A stretch of DNA of 64,000 nt from a virus. Lineage: Duplodnaviria; Heunggongvirae; Uroviricota; Caudoviricetes. The stretch lies in the IMG/VR virus record IMGVR_UViG_3300045988_010208; one strand, written 5' to 3'. A program made the translations under genes and the position numbers. The notes below the pieces were generated by a model, which was not told the origin of the DNA, ran no database searches, and saw only the letters and a list, made by a program, of their open reading frames with translations. Below are positions 12,976 to 61,345 of this stretch, piece by piece (within the stretch, counting starts at the first letter, position 1; every line of letters begins with the position of its first letter).

Positions 12976-13150
12976 TCAATGAATCTATGTTTGTAGCCCT
13001 AACCTTTTCACGTTCATCGTTAAGATAATCATCAAGAGCCTTTTCAATCTGTGAATCATCTTGACAGATAACTGTAAAGACTGTAAAGCCGTCTGTATCG
13101 TCAATTATCTTACCATAACCGCTTCTGGGATGTAACTTTTTAAGAGCCAT
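12938..13150 (-). CDS. hypothetical protein
   Basis: 70-aa ORF with Lys-rich C-terminus; 3' end overlaps the start of 12646-12975. Confidence 0.3.
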   Translation of the reverse strand: MALKKLHPRSGYGKIIDDTDGFTVFTVICQDDSQIEKALDDYLNDEREKVRATNIDSLIDTSRKRKKKDE

Positions 13151-13151
13151 A

Positions 13152-13535
13152 TCAAATACCTGTGCAGCTTCTGTTTTCTAAGAAATATTCAACACCGTAC
13201 ATAGCTTTTTGCATCAAATCTTCTTTAAACTGGATACGATGGTTGAGCATAGCCTGTACATCAATATCATCATGGTGCTTTTCTTTAATATTTGCAGATT
13301 GCAGGAAATACTCTGCAAGAACACGATATTGATAGTCAGTTACCTTATCAGTCATCTCTGTTAAAGACTCTTCAGAGATTGGTTTAAGTAGCTCACCATT
13401 CGCTAGAGCAACCCCTTTAACAATCTGGCAAGTGTCTTCTGGAACACCTGATAAATCCACATTTGGAAGTTCTGTTGCACTGACTGGTAAATTCATTGCC
13501 ATAACCATTGCAGCAGCTAATAAAATCTTTTTCAT
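13152..13535 (-). CDS. secreted/periplasmic protein
   Basis: 127 aa; N-terminus MKKILLAAAMVMAMNLPVSA|TE is a classical Sec signal peptide with AxA-like cleavage site. Confidence 0.5.
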   Translation of the reverse strand: MKKILLAAAMVMAMNLPVSATELPNVDLSGVPEDTCQIVKGVALANGELLKPISEESLTEMTDKVTDYQYRVLAEYFLQSANIKEKHHDDIDVQAMLNHRIQFKEDLMQKAMYGVEYFLENRSCTGI

Positions 13536-13715
13536 AATGACCTCAAAGTTATATTAAATTTTGTATTACATTGAGTATAAAAATAAGCTATAACACCTGA
13601 CTTGTCAACAGATTTTATAGCTTATTTGGCAGATTTTTTATAAGGCTACTGCCATCCTTCCATACATTACCTAACCAAGCCGAACATCACACAACCAGAC
13701 CGAGCCGCACCCCGC

Positions 13716-13794
13716 CTTATTAAAAGACCCTCTTTAAAGGCCTTTTAAAAAGGTGAGTCTCATTTTAATGTAGTTGAGACTAACTACCCACACC
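13716..13794. repeat. intergenic repeat module A, copy 1
   Basis: ~79 bp CTTATTAAAAGACCCTCTTTAAAGGCCTTTTAAAAAGGTGAGTCTCATTTTAATGTAGTTGAGACTAACTACCCACACC; about 90% identical to 15230-15308; contains inverted repeat GTCTCA..TGAGAC. Confidence 0.8.
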
Positions 13795-13845
13795 TTACCT
13801 CACCTGACCTGACCTGACCCTACCTAACATTACCGTGCCGCACCT

Positions 13846-13921
13846 CACTTAAAAACCTTCTTAGAAGACTCTTAAGTGATGTAATCGAATTTTAATGTAG
13901 CTCCGATTAACTACCCATACC
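13846..13921. repeat. intergenic repeat module B, copy 1
   Basis: CACTTAAAAACCTTCTTAGAAGACTCTTAAGTGATG... with inverted repeat CACTTAA/TTAAGTG; recurs at 15360-15395. Confidence 0.7.
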
Positions 13922-13965
13922 TGACCAAACCTTGCCAAACCTTACCTCACCCAACTACACCGAAC

Positions 13966-14002
13966 CTTATTAAAAGACCCTCTTAAAGACCTTTTAAAAA
14001 GG
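13966..14002. repeat. intergenic repeat module A, partial copy
   Basis: CTTATTAAAAGACCCTCTTAAAGACCTTTTAAAAAGG, first half of module A, fused to a terminator hairpin. Confidence 0.7.
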
Positions 14003-14018
14003 AGCCTCCGAAGAGGCT
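13990..14018 (-). terminator. intrinsic terminator (minus strand) after 14030-14470
   Basis: Minus-strand RNA: hairpin AGCCUC-UUCG-GAGGCU followed by UUUUUAAAA. Confidence 0.6.
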
Positions 14019-14029
14019 GCCTAGTCAAC

Positions 14030-14470
14030 TTAGAAAGGTTTTCTACGTTGCTTGTTAATGTTAGCTTTCATAGCAGCTAAATGGTTTTGCTGTTCAATTA
14101 GTCGTGAACGTTCTTGATGGCTAAGTGCCATAGTGTTCACATTCTCAATTGCTTGAGTGGCTTGCTTTAAAGCTCGACCAATCTTACCAGACATTTTACG
14201 TTTTGCAATAGTTGCTTGATGCTTAGGTTCAACCACACGATAACCAACACCCATTGAAGCAACCAGATAAATCTTCTCTTCTTTAAGAAGCTTCTCAATA
14301 AACTTCTCAAGTCGGTTTAGACGTGTAAGCGCATAAGCCTTCATTTCATCTTCGTACTTAACAATGTCACCTTGATAAGTTGGCTTCACAATACCTAAGA
14401 AGGTGTCCATCTCAGAATGTGATACAGTGTCACCGTAACTAAACTTTGCTGCTAATGCTTTCGTATTCAT
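14030..14470 (-). CDS. hypothetical protein
   Basis: 146-aa ORF; basic C-terminus. Confidence 0.4.
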   Translation of the reverse strand: MNTKALAAKFSYGDTVSHSEMDTFLGIVKPTYQGDIVKYEDEMKAYALTRLNRLEKFIEKLLKEEKIYLVASMGVGYRVVEPKHQATIAKRKMSGKIGRALKQATQAIENVNTMALSHQERSRLIEQQNHLAAMKANINKQRRKPF

Positions 14471-14472
14471 AA

Positions 14473-15078
<606 letters not shown>

Positions 15079-15229
15079 TTAGTTGATTGTTAAGTTGTTT
15101 GTAAAGAACCCTCAACAGAAGACTCTTTAGAAACTTGGTAGATTTTTAACGTGGCTACTACCATCCACCCATACCAGACCAGACCAGACCAAGCCAAGCC
15201 CAACACTACCGAACCGGACACGACCAGAC

Positions 15230-15308
15230 CTTATTAAAAGACCCTGTTTAAAGACCTTTTAAAAAGGTAAGTCTCATTTTAATGTAGCTGAGACTAACTA
15301 CCCACACC
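15230..15308. repeat. intergenic repeat module A, copy 2
   Basis: Near-identical copy of 13716-13794 in a different intergenic region. Confidence 0.8.
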
Positions 15309-15359
15309 AAACCATAGCATACATCGCATTACCGGACAGAACCATACTTTACCAAACAT

Positions 15360-15395
15360 CACTTAAAAACCCTCTTAGAAGACTCTTAAGTGATG
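15360..15395. repeat. intergenic repeat module B, copy 2 (partial)
   Basis: CACTTAAAAACCCTCTTAGAAGACTCTTAAGTGATG. Confidence 0.7.
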
Positions 15396-15461
15396 CTGGT
15401 GAGTACCCGTTGGTTTATGCTGCTCAGTATACTCACCAAATTTTCTATGTCAACAACTTTT

Positions 15462-15608
15462 TATATAAAAGTCCTGATAGCTATATGTGTTACAAAACAG
15501 AAGATTGTGAACAAGACACCCATTGCAAAGGATGTGTTCAAAAGTTTACTTGTTATGTAAGACAATACAAAGACAACTAATGCAAACAGAATGATTGTGC
15601 TTAACATA
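15462..15608 (-). CDS. possible small hydrophobic (two-helix) membrane peptide, about 48 aa
   Basis: Not in the ORF track (<60 aa). My translation: MLSTIILFALVVFVLSYITSKLLNTSFAMGVLFTIFCFVTHIAIRTFI; starts a few nt after the ligase stop. No strong RBS; coordinates approximate. Confidence 0.25.
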
Positions 15609-15610
15609 GT

Positions 15611-16750
15611 TTACTCATAATCCCTAATAACTAGCCCAACAGGAAACTGTAAAGAACCCTTACGAGTCATCTTCTGGAACTGTACTGTTAAAGGTTTCCC
15701 GATAAACTCTTCAGGGTGCTCAGCAAGATACTGTTTCTTCTCATGAGTAGTCTTCCATGAAACATCTACAAAGACGTTAGGGAGAGTCTCTACAACGAAC
15801 TTACCATGACCACGTTTATCGGTCTTGACACCAGTCACTTTAAACTCTTCAGTGTGCATCTTCTTGTGCTTAATCAAGAAGTATGAACGGTGACCACACT
15901 CGTAGAAAGATTCTTCAGAGATTGAGCGGTACATTGCACCTTCAAACTTAGCTTCAACCCACTTATCATGAGCTTCATCAAACTCTTCCCAAGAGTTAAC
16001 ACGACGAGACTTAACAGGGACAACTCTACAGCCGTCTCTAAAGTCATTCAATGGTGAAGTCTCAATAATATCTCTACGCTCAGGCCAAGTCTTAGTGCTG
16101 TCACAGATATCATACCAGTAAAACTTGAGTAAATGTCGGTCAGGATTGTCTTCATTTTTAATCATGGAGACAATATCTTCTAAATCCAACCCATGAGCAT
16201 AGATTTCACCATCAAATTCATCAACGTCTTTATGGAGCCTCAACATTGCCATAATGTCAGGTATTAGTTCAGTAGGAATTTTATAAATAGTGTTCTCACG
16301 AGAATATGCTGTAAATACACTGCCAATACTTAAGTGTCTTGAAATTCTACAACGTACACCATCCAGTTTTGGTTGAGCGTCAGCAGGGAACTTCAGATAC
16401 TTTGCATGGCTAACCTTTGCAGCATCATGAGCAAGCTGTACACCTACCTTCTCAGTATTCTGTGCAGACTCTTTTGTGTAAGCATAACCTTTACGGTCAA
16501 CTTGCTTTTTATACTTAGCAGCAACTTCAAAGAGAGCTTGCTGTTCAGCGTTACGCTCATTCTTTTTACCGATGTTTTTAGGTTCTGCTGTGTACTCTTC
16601 AAACATCATCTTGCCATTTTCTTTACCGTAGGTTGTGATAACTTTATCACCTACAGCAACACATGACCAGACGTTAAAGGAGCCATCTTTATTTTGTTTG
16701 TACAGAATTGTCATTTTATTCCTCTGAGTGATACCAAGTATTGCAAGCAT
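15611..16750 (-). CDS. ATP-dependent DNA ligase
   Basis: 379-aa ORF with adenylation motif I KxDG (PKLDGVRC). True start is probably the internal Met of ..NKMTILYKQ.., which has an AGAGGA-type RBS and would remove the overlap with 16716-16907. Confidence 0.6.
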   Translation of the reverse strand: MLAILGITQRNKMTILYKQNKDGSFNVWSCVAVGDKVITTYGKENGKMMFEEYTAEPKNIGKKNERNAEQQALFEVAAKYKKQVDRKGYAYTKESAQNTEKVGVQLAHDAAKVSHAKYLKFPADAQPKLDGVRCRISRHLSIGSVFTAYSRENTIYKIPTELIPDIMAMLRLHKDVDEFDGEIYAHGLDLEDIVSMIKNEDNPDRHLLKFYWYDICDSTKTWPERRDIIETSPLNDFRDGCRVVPVKSRRVNSWEEFDEAHDKWVEAKFEGAMYRSISEESFYECGHRSYFLIKHKKMHTEEFKVTGVKTDKRGHGKFVVETLPNVFVDVSWKTTHEKKQYLAEHPEEFIGKPLTVQFQKMTRKGSLQFPVGLVIRDYE

Positions 16751-16907
16751 TACATGCGTAAAGCTCTAAGTCATTTTTATCCGGTTTATGAAAACAATTT
16801 GCTCCGCAGTGGCAACGGAATGGCTTTCCACCAACTGTTAGGGTGAATGATTGAATCTTCCCATCAGGAGTTCGTACAGCATTTTTGTGCTTGTCTTCTT
16901 TGTTCAT
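16716..16907 (-). CDS. small zinc-ribbon protein
   Basis: 63 aa; CHCGANC ... CNACN cysteine pairs. Confidence 0.4.
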   Translation of the reverse strand: MNKEDKHKNAVRTPDGKIQSFTLTVGGKPFRCHCGANCFHKPDKNDLELYACNACNTWYHSEE

Positions 16908-17209
16908 TTTCTCTTACCACCAATCTCTACGTCGATAACTTGAACATCGCCAGCAACATCAAACTTATGAATGATGCTTTCCACAGTGTAAGTCCAACCA
17001 TCAATGCGAACCAACTCGCCTTCTCGTGGGACGATTGGATTACGTTGAGCTACGGTTGTGGTGGAGTGAACAACATCATAACGATAGGTATAGTTTACTA
17101 ATACTTCCATCGTGAAAACCTCACTCAATAACCGTGGTATGTGATTGACCATTTTTTCCATAGCTATAAGATGTTGTTGTTTGAGAGTTTGGACATCTGA
17201 CAACAACAA
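16904..17209 (-). CDS. hypothetical protein
   Basis: 101-aa ORF, start overlapping neighbour stop. Confidence 0.35.
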   Translation of the reverse strand: MLLSDVQTLKQQHLIAMEKMVNHIPRLLSEVFTMEVLVNYTYRYDVVHSTTTVAQRNPIVPREGELVRIDGWTYTVESIIHKFDVAGDVQVIDVEIGGKRK

Positions 17210-17357
17210 TATCCCTACTTATAGCATCACCATGTAACTTGTATACTCTGCAATCTTGCATTTCTGGTGGGAGGCTGTAAGAAGCATTTTTATCTTCATA
17301 AGAAGGGTTGCAGCCAGATAGAAAAATAACACCAAGCGCAATTACTGCTTTCCACAT
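17121..17357 (-). CDS. small lipoprotein (mature about 60 aa)
   Basis: ORF-track ORF 17121-17381 trimmed to internal Met with AGGAGA RBS; signal peptide MWKAVIALGVIFLSGC with lipobox L-S-G-C. Confidence 0.5.
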   Translation of the reverse strand: MWKAVIALGVIFLSGCNPSYEDKNASYSLPPEMQDCRVYKLHGDAISRDIVVVRCPNSQTTTSYSYGKNGQSHTTVIE

Positions 17358-17370
17358 AACACTTCTCCTA

Positions 17371-17616
17371 TTACTGTTCACGATGTTCTACTTCTCTGTA
17401 TGTTCGTCGATAGTTTATAATAAGCTGTGCTAACTCGTTGCTTTTAACATCTGAACGTAGCAGTTGCCAGTCAAAACCTTTACCGACTCTTCCATACAAA
17501 CTAAATAATTTTACTTTGCGTTTCATTTTGGTGTCCCCCCAATACTCAGAGGTCAATACTAATACGTTCGCCCTTAAGGACTCCTGTGCGGTCTCTTGCA
17601 ATCTTACCGTCAACAA
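17371..17616 (-). CDS. hypothetical protein
   Basis: 81-aa ORF in the minus-strand block. Confidence 0.3.
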   Translation of the reverse strand: MLTVRLQETAQESLRANVLVLTSEYWGDTKMKRKVKLFSLYGRVGKGFDWQLLRSDVKSNELAQLIINYRRTYREVEHREQ

Positions 17617-17773
17617 TAAGGATGTGTGCAGTCCTTAAAGAGTCATGATTAAAACCTTTTACGAACTTGCTAGGCATGACTACAATGGACATCTCCTGAA
17701 TTAACTCTGGAGTGTAGCAGTTATCATGAAGTTGCTGAATAACGTCTGCAAGTGTCATTTTTGATGTCTCCAA
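17546..17773 (-). CDS. hypothetical protein
   Basis: 75-aa ORF; overlaps the downstream ORF in another frame. Confidence 0.3.
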   Translation of the reverse strand: METSKMTLADVIQQLHDNCYTPELIQEMSIVVMPSKFVKGFNHDSLRTAHILIVDGKIARDRTGVLKGERISIDL

Positions 17774-17964
17774 TATTCAATATCTACAAGCTCTTGTGCA
17801 ATGCTTTTCAGATTACCTTTCAAGAAAACCTTCTCAGAACCTGAAAGAGATGAATTGTCAATTAACCTGTTCATTCTCTCAAACAACTTCTGCTTACGAT
17901 TTTTGATAGTCTCCTTTGAAGCACCTTTCATCATCGCTGCATGGGTTCTTCCACGATGGCTCAT
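17755..17964 (-). CDS. hypothetical protein
   Basis: 69-aa ORF, basic N-terminus. Confidence 0.3.
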   Translation of the reverse strand: MSHRGRTHAAMMKGASKETIKNRKQKLFERMNRLIDNSSLSGSEKVFLKGNLKSIAQELVDIEYWRHQK

Positions 17965-18015
17965 AAGCCCTCCTATATAAGATATAGTATAAGGTACTCT
18001 TCCATGAGCACCTTG

Positions 18016-18531
18016 TCAACTTAGTTTTGCAAACTCTCCGTGGAGTTTAATAGCAGCTTCACAGTAAGCTTTATGGGCTTCTTCTTCTGTTGTGTATGTC
18101 CCTATATGTATAGTCTTGCCATTATGGTTAATCTGGGCTATCCACTTACCAGACTTACTTCTACTTGTGCCTTTTAAGTTTTTTGATGTTCTAGGTTGTC
18201 TCCTATTAGACATGTTCTGTTCTTTTGTGGCCTCTCTTAGATTGTCCCAAGCGTTATTCAAACCATCTCCATCTTTGTGGTCAATGTGTTTATCAGGCCA
18301 CTTGCCTGTCATCCAGAACCAAGCAATTCGGTGATTGCCTGTCCTGTATCCTAAAATCTGTGTGTGCATATACACACCAGACCTTGTGCGCTTAATTGCT
18401 CCGGCTGGGCTTCCAATAACCACCCTACTACTGTGTGGAGGTCTGCCAATCCATGTTAAGACCCCTGTTTCGGGGTCATAATCTAACCAAGATTTTAACT
18501 GTTCATGTGTGAATCCACAATCTCTCATCAA
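18016..18531 (-). CDS. HNH homing endonuclease with AP2-like DNA-binding domain
   Basis: 171 aa; HNH motif HIDHKDGDGLNNAWDNLREATKEQN; C-terminal SGKWIAQINHNGKTIHIGTYTTEEEAHKAY resembles AP2 domain; start overlaps the DNA polymerase stop; paralogue of 28096-28620. Confidence 0.8.
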   Translation of the reverse strand: MMRDCGFTHEQLKSWLDYDPETGVLTWIGRPPHSSRVVIGSPAGAIKRTRSGVYMHTQILGYRTGNHRIAWFWMTGKWPDKHIDHKDGDGLNNAWDNLREATKEQNMSNRRQPRTSKNLKGTSRSKSGKWIAQINHNGKTIHIGTYTTEEEAHKAYCEAAIKLHGEFAKLS

Positions 18532-21257
18532 TGCACCTCATACCAGCTCTTACCAACCTTACCTGTGCCAGTTACAAGCGTCTCACTCTTCAAACCTAAA
18601 TTCTTAGATGCCTGACCATACATCCAGTCAGTTATGGCTTTAACTTCTTGAGTCATACTTTCTGGGCATTCCCAACTGTTTTCATCGTGGTATGCCAGCA
18701 AAAGCCTAGCACCGATTGCTGGTTTTCGTCCATTTAATTTTGTCAATCCTTCTTCACATGCTCTTCTACAAGCAAGGTTAATTGCCTCATTTTGAATCTG
18801 AGCCTCTGAACCCATGAGCAAATAATTCAATAACTTATGTGGAGATTTACACCACAACCAAGCTCCAGCAACCTTTACAAAACCCCCTTTAGAGATTGCA
18901 GCAGTCTTACCAAACACCTCTTCAAGTGCCTTTTTAGTTGCTTTGTAGTCAGCTTCCAAGTCATCTAGCAGCTTCTTAATTTTAGGCAAACGAATAAAGT
19001 AAGTCTGTTTAGTCAGCGCACCTTCCTGAGTAGTTGCAGCTTTAATCGTCTTAGCAAACTTCTCATCACCTGCACCGAACAGCAGTGCATAGATACCATT
19101 CTTAGCTTTCTTACGACCTTTGCTAATCTCATGAAGAAGATTCTCATCCTGAGTAGCTCGACAAGTCAAGATGTCCTGCTCATCATTCAAGCTAAAGTAA
19201 ATGCTATTCAGTGTATGCGCATCAGTCCCTGAATAGACAACGTACAGGTCATTCTCAGAGTCATAGCGAAGGTACTTATCAATTTCTGGGTTGAGGTACT
19301 CATCAAAGTGTTTGCAGTAATAGCGTCCATCTTCTTGACGAATAAACTCAATCTCTTCTTTACCTTGCGTTACCGCTTTGGTGAAGTCTTTATCACCCAT
19401 AAAGTTACAAAGCAGAACTAGCTGGGCTGAGTTCATATCTACAGAGACAACGTTAGTACCTTCCTCACAAATCCACACTGCCCTCATTGGTTCCCCATAG
19501 ACAGCAGCCCCAGACGGTACGTTTACAATACCATATTGTGTCATACGTCCAGTTGAAGTACCAAACACCATTGCACCAGCACTAAGGCGACCATCAGGAC
19601 GAATCTGGTTCAACCAACCTTTTTCATCATCCTTTGAGTTCTCAATAGTTCTGCGTCGGTGCATCAAAGTATAGTACTTAGCAATCTTCTGTCCAAGCTC
19701 ACCTTCAATCGTATCATAGGATGATTCGGTAAGTTTTGGTGAAGTACGGATTAAGCAAGGCTCAAGCAAATCTGTGTATTTCTTCACAGACCAGTTATGC
19801 TCAATGTACTGGACACCTTCATGTTCAACATAACTCAAACCACACCGCTCAACCATTTCCTGCCACTTAGGATGTTTTGTAATCATCTTTTTATTGTCTT
19901 TGAAACGACAAACTTTGACAGGACGACCATCTGAGTCTTTCTTGTAGTTCCAGTCATCTGGAATCCAACCAACTGATTTCAAGTAGTCTTTAACAACTGC
20001 TACCTGAGTCATACGAGAAACTTCAAACTCAATTGGTGTATACGGTGCATCAATCAAACCTGTGTAGCGACTTGACTCAAGTTCAAAGTGGTTAACAACG
20101 TGACTGTTATAGTACTTCACAGTTTTAACTGTTTTTACTGGCTTCCAGTCTTTGCATTTCTTACCAATCTTTGCGTTCAACTCATTGCAAATTGCACGAG
20201 CATCCTTCATTGCTACAAAGCCTTCCTTGTACTCTTCACCAGTTACAGTGTTGGTTGGTGTATAGCAATTTCTCTTTTCAATGTTAAAAATCTTTGTAGT
20301 TGGCTTACCAAATGGCTTGATTTCATATGTTTGCATCTCACCATTACGTACCTGCTGACGATACTTTGTCTTAGGGTACTTGGTAATTCTTTTCAGTCCA
20401 TCTGCATGACCAAATGTTTCAACATACTCATTCCAAGCTTTTGCAAACTCTTCTCCAGTGACTTTACCTTTGGTCTTAATAGTTGGAGGAAGATGTGGTT
20501 CAACCTCTGAAGCAAGCTCATTAGTCAACTTGTCAAGTTCCTTTACATGGAACTCCATAAGCTCTTTATCAGCTTTCCAACCATTAATAGCTTGTTGACT
20601 CATCCAGAAAGATGTTTCTTTAGCTCGCATGTAGGTTTCATAAGTGTCTATACCACACTTCTTAAGCTTGAGATACTCATTATCAAGTGCCCGTTTAGTT
20701 TTGGCGTTAATACGGATATCTTCTACAACACGAGTGAAGATTTCTGCATTCCACACACCCCAATGTTCAATCTCTGGTTTACGGACACCAACACGAGCAC
20801 CCCATGCAGCCAAGCCATGAGCACCTTTATAACCCTTTGGAGTTGGTCTATCCATCCACTGAACACGAGACTGGATAAGAGAGTCCTGAAAGAAATTACT
20901 CCACGGTTTACACTTTGGATTATCAAAGTTCCATAAATCAGGTGCAATGTGATTGAAAACCCACCAGTCATAACCGAGACCATTATGGATGCAAAGACGT
21001 TTTGCCTTTAACGCAAATTCAACACCTTCACGTAAACCACCTTTGATGTACTTAGTGTACTTGTGACCGAGGATAGGCTCATCTGTAAAGACCCATACAG
21101 GTGGCTCTTCATCGTCAGATTTATAGTCTGCGAAAGCCATTACGTGAACTTTAGTGAACTCAAGGAGTAAACCATCAGTTTCTGTATCACCAACCAAGTG
21201 TAAGTTTTTAAAATCTACGTTTTCCATTTTTACTCCCTCTAAAATCATTAACCTCAT
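18528..21257 (-). CDS. DNA polymerase, family A, with 3'-5' exonuclease domain
   Basis: 909 aa; exo motif VGDTETDG; Pol A motif B RKKAKNGIYALLFGAG; motif C LAYHDENSWE. Confidence 0.9.
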   Translation of the reverse strand: MRLMILEGVKMENVDFKNLHLVGDTETDGLLLEFTKVHVMAFADYKSDDEEPPVWVFTDEPILGHKYTKYIKGGLREGVEFALKAKRLCIHNGLGYDWWVFNHIAPDLWNFDNPKCKPWSNFFQDSLIQSRVQWMDRPTPKGYKGAHGLAAWGARVGVRKPEIEHWGVWNAEIFTRVVEDIRINAKTKRALDNEYLKLKKCGIDTYETYMRAKETSFWMSQQAINGWKADKELMEFHVKELDKLTNELASEVEPHLPPTIKTKGKVTGEEFAKAWNEYVETFGHADGLKRITKYPKTKYRQQVRNGEMQTYEIKPFGKPTTKIFNIEKRNCYTPTNTVTGEEYKEGFVAMKDARAICNELNAKIGKKCKDWKPVKTVKTVKYYNSHVVNHFELESSRYTGLIDAPYTPIEFEVSRMTQVAVVKDYLKSVGWIPDDWNYKKDSDGRPVKVCRFKDNKKMITKHPKWQEMVERCGLSYVEHEGVQYIEHNWSVKKYTDLLEPCLIRTSPKLTESSYDTIEGELGQKIAKYYTLMHRRRTIENSKDDEKGWLNQIRPDGRLSAGAMVFGTSTGRMTQYGIVNVPSGAAVYGEPMRAVWICEEGTNVVSVDMNSAQLVLLCNFMGDKDFTKAVTQGKEEIEFIRQEDGRYYCKHFDEYLNPEIDKYLRYDSENDLYVVYSGTDAHTLNSIYFSLNDEQDILTCRATQDENLLHEISKGRKKAKNGIYALLFGAGDEKFAKTIKAATTQEGALTKQTYFIRLPKIKKLLDDLEADYKATKKALEEVFGKTAAISKGGFVKVAGAWLWCKSPHKLLNYLLMGSEAQIQNEAINLACRRACEEGLTKLNGRKPAIGARLLLAYHDENSWECPESMTQEVKAITDWMYGQASKNLGLKSETLVTGTGKVGKSWYEVH

Positions 21258-54589: not shown

Positions 54590-54634
54590 AGATAAAGAGC
54601 TTTACCACTAAATCCTAAACTGGAGATTCAAAAA

Positions 54635-55177
54635 ATGAAATGCTTTCACGGTACTACTCAAGAAAACTTTATCAACCTGATTAATAATGGTGATAAGCCA
54701 TCAGGTGCATGGAATTGTTCGGATATGGATGGCAATTTTTACGTATACCCAGAAAATAAAATTTATGGTGACGATGAGGAAGAGATAGTATCCGAAGGTA
54801 TTCAACAGGCGTTAGGAAATGCCACTATCACGGCAGCTTTCCAGATGAAAACCCAAAACATTGTTATCTTGGAACTTGATATTCCAGAGGATGAATTAAA
54901 TGATGATTATTCTTGTGATAATATGTCTGGCGTAGCAAGTTTTACAGAATACTTCGATTTAAATTGGATTAAAAAGGTTTACGTAACCGAGTTTAATGCG
55001 ATGTTTTCGCCTTTTTGTCTTCCTTCATTGGATAACCCGAATTTAAACTATCTTGATGAGTCTCTGGAACTTCTTGCTAAAAGCGTTCAACAGTCGGACA
55101 GTATTCAGGTTTTTTGTGACATCATGGATACACTGGCAGGAAACATCGCAGAAGAGGATTTAAAGAGCTTTTTTTAA
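54635..55177 (+). CDS. hypothetical early protein (acidic)
   Basis: 180-aa ORF after a type-2 cassette. Confidence 0.5.
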   Translation: MKCFHGTTQENFINLINNGDKPSGAWNCSDMDGNFYVYPENKIYGDDEEEIVSEGIQQALGNATITAAFQMKTQNIVILELDIPEDELNDDYSCDNMSGVASFTEYFDLNWIKKVYVTEFNAMFSPFCLPSLDNPNLNYLDESLELLAKSVQQSDSIQVFCDIMDTLAGNIAEEDLKSFF

Positions 55178-56739: not shown

Positions 56740-56988
56740 ATGGCTACTATCCGCGCAACTGTTAACGAATTTGGCTTCTACTCTCTGGACGTTAAATTTG
56801 ACCTTGTAGGTACTGATAACGCCTTTGAAATGGTGAAAGGCCTTATCAGCCAGACCATCAGTGACTACAACCCCTCTGATGAATTCTGGAAAGAAACAAA
56901 ACAGGAAGCTCTCAAAGAGGGTTATACATACCACTACTGGGGTGAAAAAATTGTCTCCCTGTACTACGACAAAGAAGGCACTAACTAA
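56740..56988 (+). CDS. hypothetical early protein
   Basis: 82-aa ORF, last gene of the plus-strand array. Confidence 0.5.
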   Translation: MATIRATVNEFGFYSLDVKFDLVGTDNAFEMVKGLISQTISDYNPSDEFWKETKQEALKEGYTYHYWGEKIVSLYYDKEGTN

Positions 56989-57025: not shown

Positions 57026-57051
57026 CAGCCCCGTTTAAGGGGCTTTTTTAC
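57026..57051 (+). terminator. intrinsic terminator ending the plus-strand array
   Basis: AGCCCC-GUUUAA-GGGGCU hairpin followed by UUUUUU; preceded by a cassette-like GGGGCT-AAAT-AGCCCC remnant (56999-57014). Confidence 0.65.
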
Positions 57052-58703
57052 GTCTATCAAATTCCTTTCCAGAATCTTAAAACCCACCTAACAAGTCAGA
57101 ACTTTACCACTGATTCGATAGAATCTATCCCAGACCTTAAAAAATAATAACTCTATAGTCTACTCTATAGCATTTTATCAAATCAACTTAAATATAAGCC
57201 CATAACCCGAAAGGGAAGGGCAACCCCTTAAACGCTCTATAAAGCTCTATAACAGCCTTATCAACCTAACTTAAGCAATCATATTAACCCACTCTAAAAA
57301 GCCCTTCCTAGAGCTTCCCAGAGCCTTAAAAGAATCTTATAAGGGTGTAAGCTTTATCATCTCGTTAGTATTCTTGTGAATATCTAAAAAGGACTTGTTA
57401 GTGTCTTAAAAGTATGTTATAGGGGCTTAAAAGTTACGTAAAAGTAGCTTAAAAGTTACGTAAATGCTAGCCCCCTTAACATTTTCTTAACAATTTCTTA
57501 ACAAACCCTACATAGTTATGCTTTTAAGGCACTTGTTAGCCCCTTGTTAAATCTCTGTTAAGACCACGTAAAAGCCTTGTAAGAGTCTTTGACATAGCCT
57601 TTAAAGCTCCTGTAAAGCCCTATAAAGAGGTGTCTGTATAGTTGGGGTGTAACTACTAGGAAGAGACTTAAAAGGGGCTATACAGAGCTTTTAAGAGGGC
57701 TATTTAGAGAATCACTAAGAGGAGAAGGGAACGATAAGAAAGAAGAGTTGTGTTTGTAAACAACCACTGTGACCATGTTAATAGCTTGTTAAAAAGATTA
57801 AACACTTGTTAGAAACTTGTTAATTATCTTAACAAAATAACTCTTTAAAATTAACTTGTTAGCTCTTGTTAGTCATCTGTTAAGATTCTGTAAAGCCTAT
57901 TCAGCACTTGTTAGGAAACTGTTACAGCCTTGTTAGTTCTGTTAAGAAACTGTTAAGACCTTTGAAGAGTTGTTAAGAAGATGTGAGAACTGTTAAGAGA
58001 TTGTTAAGGATATTTTAAAATTTTGCAAAGTACTTGTAAGGGAGCTGTTAAGGGCTACCAAGCAGATATACATCTTCTACAGATATTTTTGAGTTCCTTC
58101 AAAGACCCTAAAAAATGACTTGATAGTCCTATTTTATAAAAATTTTAAGATTTTGAATAATTACCTATACAGTCTTTTAAAAATACAGGTAGAAACAGGC
58201 TTATAAGATACCTTGTTAATACCGTGTTAGACCTTGTGAGATAAGGTCTGTAAAGATATTCCTGTTAAGTTTGTTAAAACAGTCTATATAGAGGTTTAGT
58301 AATACCTAGTGAACACCTATAGAGGGTATCATAGCTGACATAATGGGTTACTGTTAAGTAACACAGATAACCTAGAGATTAAGAGGTGTATAGGAGCTTC
58401 TAAGAGGGTGTAGAGGGATGATTAAGGTGATTGTATAGGTTGTTAAGAAGGCTTGTTAGAAGAGTGTTTAGAAGGCTTGTTAGAGGGCTAGTTAGAAGGG
58501 TTATACAGAGGGGCTATTAAGACCACTAGATAGTTACTAAGATACTATATAGTACTATATAACTATATAGAGAGTAAGATTAAGAAGGTTGTTAAGAAGG
58601 GTAGATATTTTATTCACATATGATGGTGACCCAGAGGTTGGGACAACCAATAAAATTTTATAAAAATTAAAAAGCCCCCAATTAAGGAGGCTCTTAAGAT
58701 ATT
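57052..58703. repeat. ORF-free region dense in short degenerate direct repeats
   Basis: About 1.65 kb with no ORF of 60 aa or more on either strand; roughly 35 copies of YTGTTARR (CTTGTTAG, CTGTTAAG, TTGTTAAG), many CTATAKAG-type copies, a 17-bp direct repeat CTTAAAAGTTACGTAAA x2 near 57428-57465, TATATAG clusters near 58540-58570. Confidence 0.8.
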
Positions 58704-59309
58704 TTAAATCAGTGTTTCCAGAACTGTTTTTAATGATGACTTGGTTGTCTGATAAAAATGAGTGAATCCATTGTTGTTATCAAATATCTGCATCATAACA
58801 GCATCTCCCTTGATTGGGTACACTCGGATATCATAGTGAAACCCATTAAAGACAGCAGAACCGTTACAGAACACACTAAAATCATCCACTGAGATATACT
58901 CTTCATGCCCTGTGATTTTTATACAGACACCTTTGCTCGGTCTCTTAGGGTTGATATCTTCCATCACAGACATATTCTGTCCACCAAGAGATACCATAGT
59001 GACCACTTTACGGTTCTTCTGTTTAAAGTACATTTTAACTTTCTGTAAAGTGTCTTCATAGAACGGATAAGACTTCTCTACAAAGACTCCTTCTAATGGC
59101 TCTTTACCATTTTCAACTTCTCTGTTATGCTGTACTGCAAAGATAATTTGTTCGAACCAGTCAAGATTTTCTTCGGAGAGTGCTTCTCGAATATCACTCC
59201 AGTCAAGGACTAGGTAGTTACCTTCAACTTCTTTTAAGTTATCTTTTTCCATAGCTATCACACCATTATCGTAAAACTTGGTAATCTGGTACTGCAAACT
59301 TGTTGTCAT
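58704..59309 (-). CDS. hypothetical protein
   Basis: 201-aa ORF, first gene of the minus-strand block; start may be the internal Met to avoid overlap. Confidence 0.4.
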   Translation of the reverse strand: MTTSLQYQITKFYDNGVIAMEKDNLKEVEGNYLVLDWSDIREALSEENLDWFEQIIFAVQHNREVENGKEPLEGVFVEKSYPFYEDTLQKVKMYFKQKNRKVVTMVSLGGQNMSVMEDINPKRPSKGVCIKITGHEEYISVDDFSVFCNGSAVFNGFHYDIRVYPIKGDAVMMQIFDNNNGFTHFYQTTKSSLKTVLETLI

Positions 59310-59730
59310 TGTTTTTAATGAGGTCTTCTTCTGTTACTAAGAATGTAAGACCACACAAGTGTGTATATCGGCTATCATACTCAAATATTTTAAGTAAGTA
59401 TTTACCATCATGATAGACAGATTCTACTACACCTTTTGCAACAATCTTCCCAGTCTTGAAGTCTTTAAGACGGTATACATTACCAACTTTAGGGACTGTT
59501 TTCACTTCAGGTTCTTTTAGCTTCTCACCAGCTTCTACATCACCTAGTAAGTGAGAACTTTCAAACGCTACATATTGCATATAAGCTTCTGAGCATTCCC
59601 AGATAAAACAGTGTACAAGAACCTTAGCAGCATGTCTTGAGCAATTCAGTTTATCACAAATCTCTTTGTACATGTCATCTTTAGTTGAGTTGTCAAGCAT
59701 TGCTTTTTGAACGACTTCTTTAATTTTCAT
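59266..59730 (-). CDS. hypothetical protein
   Basis: 154-aa ORF. Confidence 0.4.
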   Translation of the reverse strand: MKIKEVVQKAMLDNSTKDDMYKEICDKLNCSRHAAKVLVHCFIWECSEAYMQYVAFESSHLLGDVEAGEKLKEPEVKTVPKVGNVYRLKDFKTGKIVAKGVVESVYHDGKYLLKIFEYDSRYTHLCGLTFLVTEEDLIKNNDNKFAVPDYQVLR

Positions 59731-59783
59731 TTCGCTACCTTCTAAGTTTCTACAAAGGGGCTATCAAGTAACCCCTCAAGTTA

Positions 59784-60008
59784 TTACTCAGACTTTTCAG
59801 TCTTCTTTTCAGATTTCTTACTAGTCTTCTTCTCAGCTTTCTGCTCAGGCTCCTTCTCAGAAGTTGCCTTGATAACCATATCAAGAAGCTCTGATAAGTC
59901 ACTCTTCAGCAGAGTAACAGGCTGCTCGTTGTAGAAGTTTTTGTCAAGATAAACTTTGAACTCTTCAATAGAAGGGAATCCAAAAATTGGTACAGGTGTC
60001 TTAATCAT
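59784..60008 (-). CDS. hypothetical protein with Lys/Glu-rich C-terminal tail
   Basis: 74-aa ORF; C-terminus KAEKKTSKKSEKKTEKSE. Confidence 0.35.
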   Translation of the reverse strand: MIKTPVPIFGFPSIEEFKVYLDKNFYNEQPVTLLKSDLSELLDMVIKATSEKEPEQKAEKKTSKKSEKKTEKSE

Positions 60009-60588: not shown

Positions 60589-60803
60589 TTTTCAACCCCT
60601 CTCAATCGTTTGTTCCATTCAAGGTCAACAAGTCTTTGCAGGACTTTCCCTCTAGGTGTTACACCTTTTAAATCTGCATCATAGCAACGGTAAAAGTCAC
60701 CTTCAGCGTGTTTACCATAGCATTTTCTGATATTCTGGCTTCTACGATACTGTTCTAACAGGGAAAGTTTGTAGTAATCTTCAACTGTAGTTAACTTTTT
60801 CAT
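60585..60803 (-). CDS. hypothetical protein
   Basis: 72-aa ORF, overlapping start/stop with neighbours. Confidence 0.35.
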   Translation of the reverse strand: MKKLTTVEDYYKLSLLEQYRRSQNIRKCYGKHAEGDFYRCYDADLKGVTPRGKVLQRLVDLEWNKRLRGVEK

Positions 60804-61345
60804 TCTTTCACCATAGCATTTCTGAACTGGCGTTGTGTTTCTCTTGTAATTTCGTTTGGAGTAAACCCTGCTTTTAGCATATCTCTGAAAAGAGCTTCTA
60901 AGTGGTTCCTCTCAATGATGTAAATGGCATTCTGAATAGCTGTTTTACGCTCCTTCAAGTCACTGCTAATCTCTTCACACTTACTGGTAAGCTCTGTATC
61001 AACTCTCTTAAAGGGTGGTATAATATGTGTATGACCACCTTTAGCAGCATCCATGAAAAATTTAAAAGATTCTTCAGAGTCCTTTAAAGCAATTCCTATA
61101 AAGTTTTTGTAAGCACCTGTGAAAGATAAGGAATCAATCTCAGCAGTTGAGTATACAGTCCCTGCACACAGTCTTGCAGAAGTACTAAATGTGTGGTTTG
61201 GTGTTGTGTCAAAGTCTAAGTTCTTCAGTGGTCGGAAATAAACTGTACCATTTTGTGAGATGTGTGTTACAACAGCCTCAACACTCTTTGAGGGGTTCTG
61301 CTTAACATACAAAATAATTTTATCGTGCTCTTTCACTTTAGCCAT
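60800..61345 (-). CDS. hypothetical protein
   Basis: 181-aa ORF. Confidence 0.4.
   Translation of the reverse strand: MAKVKEHDKIILYVKQNPSKSVEAVVTHISQNGTVYFRPLKNLDFDTTPNHTFSTSARLCAGTVYSTAEIDSLSFTGAYKNFIGIALKDSEESFKFFMDAAKGGHTHIIPPFKRVDTELTSKCEEISSDLKERKTAIQNAIYIIERNHLEALFRDMLKAGFTPNEITRETQRQFRNAMVKE

Follow-up and report, generated by a model that had tools for sequence, protein, structure and literature searches.

Positions 57052-58703 of the window (the whole 64,000-nt stretch of Caudoviricetes DNA analyzed, IMG/VR record IMGVR_UViG_3300045988_010208) form a 1652-bp region filled with short repeats, which is examined here as the probable site of the genome ends of a tailed phage. The region lies between two convergent gene blocks, each closed by an inward-facing terminator. 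The last gene of the plus-strand block (56740-56988, + strand) encodes an 82-aa protein of PHROG 4559, a family of unknown function, and is followed by an intrinsic terminator at 57027-57051 (+ strand), the hairpin of which (57027-57044) has a 6-bp stem with 5 GC pairs and precedes a T run. On the opposite side, the last gene of the minus-strand block (58704-59309, - strand) encodes a 201-aa protein of PHROG 4330, also of unknown function and with no Pfam match, and its intrinsic terminator is at 58695-58670 (- strand; 10-bp stem, 5 GC pairs). An earlier note, made from the sequence alone, had described convergent flanks and a region free of open reading frames (ORFs), and this description was borne out: the flanking ORFs end at 56988 and 58704, both terminators face inward, and ORFs within the region reach at most 33 aa.

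Similarity searches with the region returned 257 phage records, nearly all from Felixounavirus; 176 of these spanned 80% or more of its length, with identity lying mostly between 80 and 95%. In nearly all matching records the region had been left unannotated, and some carried short "hypothetical proteins." Distant DNA searches added Suspvirus and Mooglevirus (73-78% identity) and an 83-bp match to Erwinia Kolesnikvirus phages within the TGTTAAG array, 57948-58030 being the sole part that still matched Erwinia phages at the DNA level. By sequence similarity, then, the source genome is that of a Felixounavirus, a Felix O1-like myophage. One record among the Felixounavirus matches was labeled "Staphylococcus," probably a mislabeled or mixed-up submission.

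The "hypothetical proteins" in GenBank are the only point in favor of the region encoding small proteins or a noncoding RNA, a reading that is very improbable. When 25 nonredundant members of the genus were aligned (20 IMG/VR loci, 4 GenBank loci, and the window), the four window ORFs of 31-33 aa were intact in 1, 2, 5, and 12 genomes and were thus not conserved, and the longest ORF of the region in any genome was at most 53 aa. An Rfam search with a permissive E-value gave nothing relevant; its two sub-threshold matches (E = 0.15 and 0.27, far below gathering scores) sit on the minus-strand terminator and on the start of the flanking gene, outside the repeat arrays. A scan of the region for sigma-70-like promoters found 10 sites, compared with 8.6 ± 3.1 expected, which is chance level, and the inward-facing terminators that bracket the region also argue against a product.

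The genome ends of several relatives have been mapped, and they fall inside the homologous DNA. Phage Ro111lw has a 613-bp direct terminal repeat (DTR) according to PhageTerm (PMC6454146), and its record begins and ends with the same 613 bp; the equivalent of this repeat in the window starts at position 57470 (GCCCCCTTAACATTTTC...) and finishes at 58059 (...GCTGTTAAGGGCTACC), with exact matches of the boundary sequences. For Pr103Blw, PhageTerm gave a 581-bp DTR (PMC8303462), and the GenBank record (MW481326.1) labels 1-581 and 87841-88421 as a "short direct terminal repeat region"; window positions 57470-58059 aligned end to end with Pr103Blw 1-581. Citrobacter phage HP1 (Mooglevirus) has a repeat_region at 1-570 and one record end at the DTR homologue, and the Felixounavirus records of vB_EcoM_H12, NBEco004, and NBEco005 likewise have one end each at the DTR homologue. 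The record of Erwinia phage Hena2 starts at the homologous nucleotide (...GGTTAG/CCACTTTTACATTTCGTTAACA, where the slash marks the boundary), and the right-boundary-like AAGTAGATATAC follows at ~438 bp. Around each boundary, Ro111lw and Pr103Blw were identical or nearly identical to the window over 30 nt on the outer side and 45 nt on the inner side. For HP1, the match to the window covered the inner side of both boundaries and the outer side of the right boundary; the HP1 record begins at the left cut.

Biochemical mapping in a further relative, UAB_Phi87, led to the same place. In that phage, the SpeI fragments lost on Bal31 digestion measure 4322 and 2819 bp, run-off sequencing gave a 608-bp DTR, and the large terminase clusters with terminases that generate DTRs (PMC4837284). 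If a single DTR copy is present in the sequence, the SpeI sites that bracket the junction are expected 4322 + 2819 - 608 = 6533 bp apart. The deposited sequence (JN225449) has SpeI sites at 1134, 4455, 13014, 19582, 59931, and 71356, and the sole fitting interval is 13014-19582 (6568 bp), which brackets the homologue of the junction at 14555-16139.

Because close relatives have their physical termini mapped to homologous positions within the region, a terminal or packaging role is supported, and of the three alternatives in the earlier note (replication origin, packaging or terminal region of a linear genome, array of binding sites) the second was upheld, with the DTR homologue at 57470-58059. 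We consider it highly probable that 57052-58703 is the concatemer junction of a Felix O1-like genome, made up of a 590-bp DTR and noncoding flanks of 418 and 644 bp. In phages with short DTRs of the T7 type, one copy of the repeat separates successive genomes in the replicating concatemers; the terminase cuts at two defined boundaries, and duplication of the repeat gives every packaged genome a copy at either end. The 25-mers of the DTR occur once in the window; the assembly has therefore collapsed the repeat into a single internal copy and was opened elsewhere. The junction is sealed off from transcription by the convergent terminators. The suggestion that neighboring early genes mark the end that enters the cell first found no support, since both blocks are transcribed toward the termini and stop at the terminators, and nothing reads inward.

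The DTR is bounded by the left cut TACGTAAATGCTA/GCCCCCTTAACA and the right cut CTGTTAAGGGCTACC/AAGCAGATATAC. When the two virion ends are read inward they resemble each other (5'-GCCCCCTTAACA... and 5'-GGTAGCCCTTAACAG...), so that an inverted terminal motif, G-N-TAGCCC..TTAACA, is common to both boundaries. The left end is followed by three inverted CTTAACA units, and the right end is preceded by a long TGTTAAG array. The former, located immediately inside the left end (57475-57504, - strand), are 11-bp units of the form CTTAACAxTTT, that is, inverted TGTTAAG units, which are present in 2 to 5 copies in relatives; the latter is a dense TGTTA(A/G)-type array (57774-58052, + strand) with 16 TGTTA cores that runs up to the right cut. 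Between them lies a purine-rich DTR core without units (57711-57773), variable and indel-prone among relatives.

The left flank (57052-57469, 418 bp), which in the virion is unique DNA immediately inside the right-hand DTR copy, ends in tandem 22-bp units of the GGGGCTTAAAAGTTACGTAAAA type that abut the left cut (57405-57464). The 17-bp direct repeat reported earlier, CTTAAAAGTTACGTAAA, was found in its two copies at 57426 and 57448, and each 22-bp unit contains the perfect palindrome TTACGTAA (57434-57441 and 57456-57463, 28 and 6 nt upstream of the left cut), of which the 64-kb window has a single further copy, at 54979. The right flank (58060-58703, 644 bp) begins with the most conserved noncoding stretch (58060-58300), which lies immediately inside the left virion end and includes an AT-rich block at 58130-58165. 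Further arrays occupy 58284-58620, namely 12-bp TTGTTAGAAGGC units at 58440-58499, a CTATATAG cluster at 58543-58571 (the TATATAG cluster of the earlier description), and additional TGTTA units.

The same layout was found throughout the Ounavirinae compared: a plus-strand block, a terminator, a flank of ~420-460 bp, the DTR, a flank of ~630-640 bp, a terminator, and a minus-strand block. The DTRs of UAB_Phi87 (608 bp), Ro111lw (613 bp), Pr103Blw (581 bp), and HP1 (570 bp) are homologous DNA, with boundary sequences identical to those of the window in Ro111lw and near-identical in Pr103Blw and HP1. The window differs from these relatives in the length of its DTR (590 bp), in the copy numbers of the 22-, 11-, and 12-bp units, and in the collapse of the DTR to one internal copy.

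Both cut sites were invariant in the 25 genus members (TACGTAAATGCTA/GCCCCCTTAACA and CTGTTAAGGGCTACC/AAGCAGATATACATC), conserved in Suspvirus (mistaenkt) and Mooglevirus (HP1), and recognizable in Kolesnikvirus. The region as a whole was present in 23 of 23 related loci, at an identity of 0.75-0.94 per 200-nt segment (median ~0.88), comparable to that of the coding flanks. Identity to the window was highest at 58060-58300 (93-98% in 50-nt bins, 24 aligned relatives), and 58050-58300 and 58500-58700 together gave 93-99%. Most of the variation lay in the number of units: copies of the 22-bp GGGGCTTAAAAGTTACGTAAAA unit ranged from about 1 to 8 and those of the 11-bp CTTAACATTTT unit from 2 to 5, and the 12-bp array at 58440-58499 carried indels. 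Array copy number thus varies among relatives while the boundaries stay fixed. In three relatives (L015, L024, and L030), the same 24 nt (ATGAGGTAGATTCTACCGAATCAAC) are inserted just beyond the right DTR boundary, 15 nt rightward of the position that aligns with 58059. Two accessory segments in the wider flanks, 54600-55000 and 60800-61200, were present in just 7-8 of the 23 related loci.

The repeats themselves are best described by a single gapped octamer. The sequence CT-N4-AG occurred at 64 sites in the 1652 bp, compared with 11.3 ± 3.1 (maximum 21) in first-order Markov simulations and ~15 predicted from the rest of the window. No enrichment was found in the region for CT-N3-AG (3 sites) or CT-N5-AG (4 sites), both of which were less frequent per kilobase than in the rest of the window. 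The TGTTA core was present at 37 sites (30 on the + strand, 7 on the - strand; ~6 expected). The earlier claim of repeat saturation therefore stood, the excess being far beyond chance, but its figure of roughly 35 YTGTTARR copies did not, as the exact pattern occurs at 23 sites (19 +, 4 -); likewise, CTATAKAG copies are present, the "many" amounting to 6 distinct sites. CT-N4-AG with a T/A/G-rich interior is the better definition of the unit and covers almost all of the motifs first noted.

Neighboring CT-N4-AG sites tended to lie about one helical turn apart. Of the 63 gaps between neighbors, 25 measured 10-12 bp (simulated 5.0 ± 2.1) and 11 measured 21-23 bp (simulated 3.2 ± 1.7), and pairwise distances peaked at ~11, 22, 33, and 43 bp. 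The number of units per full-length genome was 56-70 (49 in a contig-truncated locus), and at 36 of 63 sites, 90% or more of the genomes retained the CT..AG frame. The left flank contained 16 units, most of them xAAAG or TATAG variants (compared with 3.8 units expected there), the DTR 28, and the right flank 18.

The sub-arrays differ in the unit variants that they use. The pre-DTR flank of Hena2 (last 571 bp of the record) contains the unit TTCTA[AC] 14 times, most neighbors being 10-12 bp apart, whereas in Felixounavirus the units of this flank are of the xAAAG and TATAG types. This pattern suggests that the sub-arrays undergo concerted evolution, with selection acting on repetition and spacing rather than on one sequence.

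Replication slippage or unequal recombination in a spacer could generate such arrays as a by-product, in which case function would be confined to the two cut sites. The copy-number polymorphism of the 22-, 11-, and 12-bp units among close relatives, the local homogenization of unit subtypes, and the tolerance of T7 for insertions at most positions near its genome ends are in keeping with this explanation. It is nevertheless improbable, because these compact genomes have retained the 1.65 kb, both in 23 of 23 loci and in four genera, at an identity as high as that of the coding flanks (93-98% at 58050-58300) and with the CT..AG frame maintained at more than half of the sites.

A replication origin, present instead of or in addition to the genome ends, was also considered; the phased repeats would then be iterons and the AT-rich block at 58130-58165 an unwinding element. 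Dense, locally phased repeats, the very conserved AT-rich stretch at 58100-58200, a lone DnaA-box-like match, and a cumulative GC skew maximum that falls in the junction region are compatible with an origin, as is the fact that T7 has secondary origins near its ends. The region has the direct repeats, roughly helical spacing, and noncoding AT-rich context of iteron origins (lambda ori, P1 oriR, plasmid iterons). Iterons, however, are typically 17-22 bp long, few, and adjacent to an initiator gene, whereas the window has 64 degenerate 8-bp units and no initiator was recognized among the flanking genes, which match no family of known function. The region contained a single DnaA-box-like match, TTATTCACA at 58610-58618, in a 96%-conserved stretch near the minus-strand terminator; this lone match could be a chance event, and no IHF consensus was found in the region. 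Because the skew switch coincides with the switch in gene orientation, the skew peak is not independent evidence for an origin. The property that has been mapped in the homologous DNA of relatives is the genome termini, and we regard an origin as rather unlikely.

The inverted boundary motif G-N-TAGCCC..TTAACA may be the actual cut signal, and the 64 octamers, locally about one helical turn apart, would provide a redundant protein-binding or DNA-shaping lattice. Such a lattice could recruit and position the packaging machinery, either the large terminase subunit (TerL) with a substitute for the small subunit (TerS) or an accessory protein. No TerS has been identified in Felix O1 (PMC3185647). 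In this phage subfamily, which lacks a recognizable small terminase, CT-N4-AG might be a conserved, helically phased lattice for a packaging-initiation factor (a TerS substitute, TerL, or an accessory protein) that wraps ~1.6 kb of junction DNA and, via G-N-TAGCCC..TTAACA, sets cuts 590 bp apart, its sub-arrays evolving in concert; we offer this as a tentative model with a minority share of our confidence. If it is true, the different unit in one flank of the Erwinia relatives would follow from the concerted evolution of the sub-arrays.

The earlier note had also raised an array of binding sites for a phage protein, which is a plausible alternative. In its nonpackaging form, the octamers would be bound by a phage or host protein that protects the ends after injection or acts in anchoring, silencing, or as a decoy, and the DTR would merely lie inside the array. 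All three sub-regions, not just the parts next to the cuts, had 3 to 5 times the expected number of CT-N4-AG units, and sub-arrays use different unit variants (such as TTCTA[AC] in Hena2), as this explanation would predict. Conversely, the arrays reach their highest density at the edges of the DTR, where left-edge and right-edge units lie in opposite orientations, which fits a role linked to the cuts; moreover, no candidate protein was found in the PHROG and Pfam searches. A nonpackaging role was accordingly judged to be about as unlikely as an origin.

Several observations weigh against the junction or against a packaging role for its lattice. The termini of the window phage itself, at 57470 and 58059, are placed by homology to relatives. 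A hairpin, GGGGCT/AGCCCC, which includes the two TTACGTAA palindromes, spans the left cut, but it is weak (z = -2.3), and no counterpart was found at the right cut. CT-N4-AG units were only slightly better conserved than the spacers (0.888 vs. 0.838). Phasing of the octamers is local only: the Fourier peak had a period of 10.5 and a power of 6.3, below the null 95th percentile of 6.8, so that no long-range phasing was detected. PHROG and Pfam searches gave no DNA-binding or TerS match for the four flanking genes or for four UAB_Phi87 genes near TerL and the tRNA cluster; in both sets, all matches were to families of unknown function. Finally, the UAB_Phi87 record (JN225449) has a 542-bp end overlap (1-542 and 87062-87603) in a tRNA cluster by the terminase gene and not at the homologue of the junction.

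From the ends of that record, one would expect the terminal fragments to measure 1134 and 16247 bp, compared with the published 4322 and 2819 bp, and the overlap appears to result from linearization of the record at an arbitrary point. Termini in the tRNA cluster were rejected on the basis of the SpeI test and of four other records with annotated or PhageTerm ends. No tRNA genes were found in the 64-kb window.

The closest mechanistic parallel to the junction is that of T7, which serves here as an analogy and does not imply membership; T7-like phages were not returned by DNA similarity searches with the region. In the T7 sequence we found a 160-bp terminal repeat, identical at both ends, with three (C/A)(C/A)TAAAG units inside the repeat and 11 just to the right of it, ~13 bp apart. 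These short-repeat arrays beside the terminal repeat were reportedly named SRL and SRR by Dunn and Studier in 1983. Both systems thus have a short, exact, nonpermuted DTR in noncoding DNA, and both have arrays of degenerate 7-8-bp units inside and beside the repeat at a spacing of 11-13 bp. In T7, positions 142 and 162 have been described as essential, most other loci of the genome ends being dispensable and tolerant of insertions. Boundaries there matter more than single units, which parallels the invariant boundaries and flexible arrays of the window junction.

The differences concern the unit, the scale, and the genes. The T7 unit is (C/A)(C/A)TAAAG, of the CTAAAG type, whereas that of the window is CT-N4-AG, which is absent from T7 positions 1-400; T7 has ~20 units in roughly 0.5 kb, compared with ~64 in 1.65 kb in the window. 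T7 carries the promoters phiOL, phiOR, and A0 beside its repeat, whereas the window junction has terminators. A TerS is known in T7 (gp18), whereas none has been identified in Felix O1-like phages, and T7 is a podovirus, whereas the window phage is a myovirus.

That the region is a terminal repeat is already known and annotated in close relatives. In the literature searched on Felix O1-like phages, no description of the CT-N4-AG lattice or of the inverted boundary motif was found; the Felix O1 genome paper gives other repeats and does not discuss the gap between genes 23 and 24. Most Felixounavirus records, like this assembly, were opened arbitrarily with the DTR collapsed, and at least one public record (UAB_Phi87) has deposited ends that conflict with its own published end mapping. 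With the true ends at 57470 and 58059, as predicted here, the genome can be oriented and sized correctly, with the addition of 590 bp. Felix O1-like phages are widely used for diagnostics and biocontrol, and the boundary motifs and octamer lattice are testable candidates for packaging signals and parts of the junction that engineers should leave untouched.

Two other bins of the window, 59501-60000 and 1-500, were also rich in CT-N4-AG. Both are covered by ORFs and consist of coding-looking sequence, and they were set aside as unrelated to the junction arrays. The first contains 16 CT-N4-AG sites and includes a small ORF (59784-60008, - strand) with low-complexity repeats of the CTTCTCAG type.

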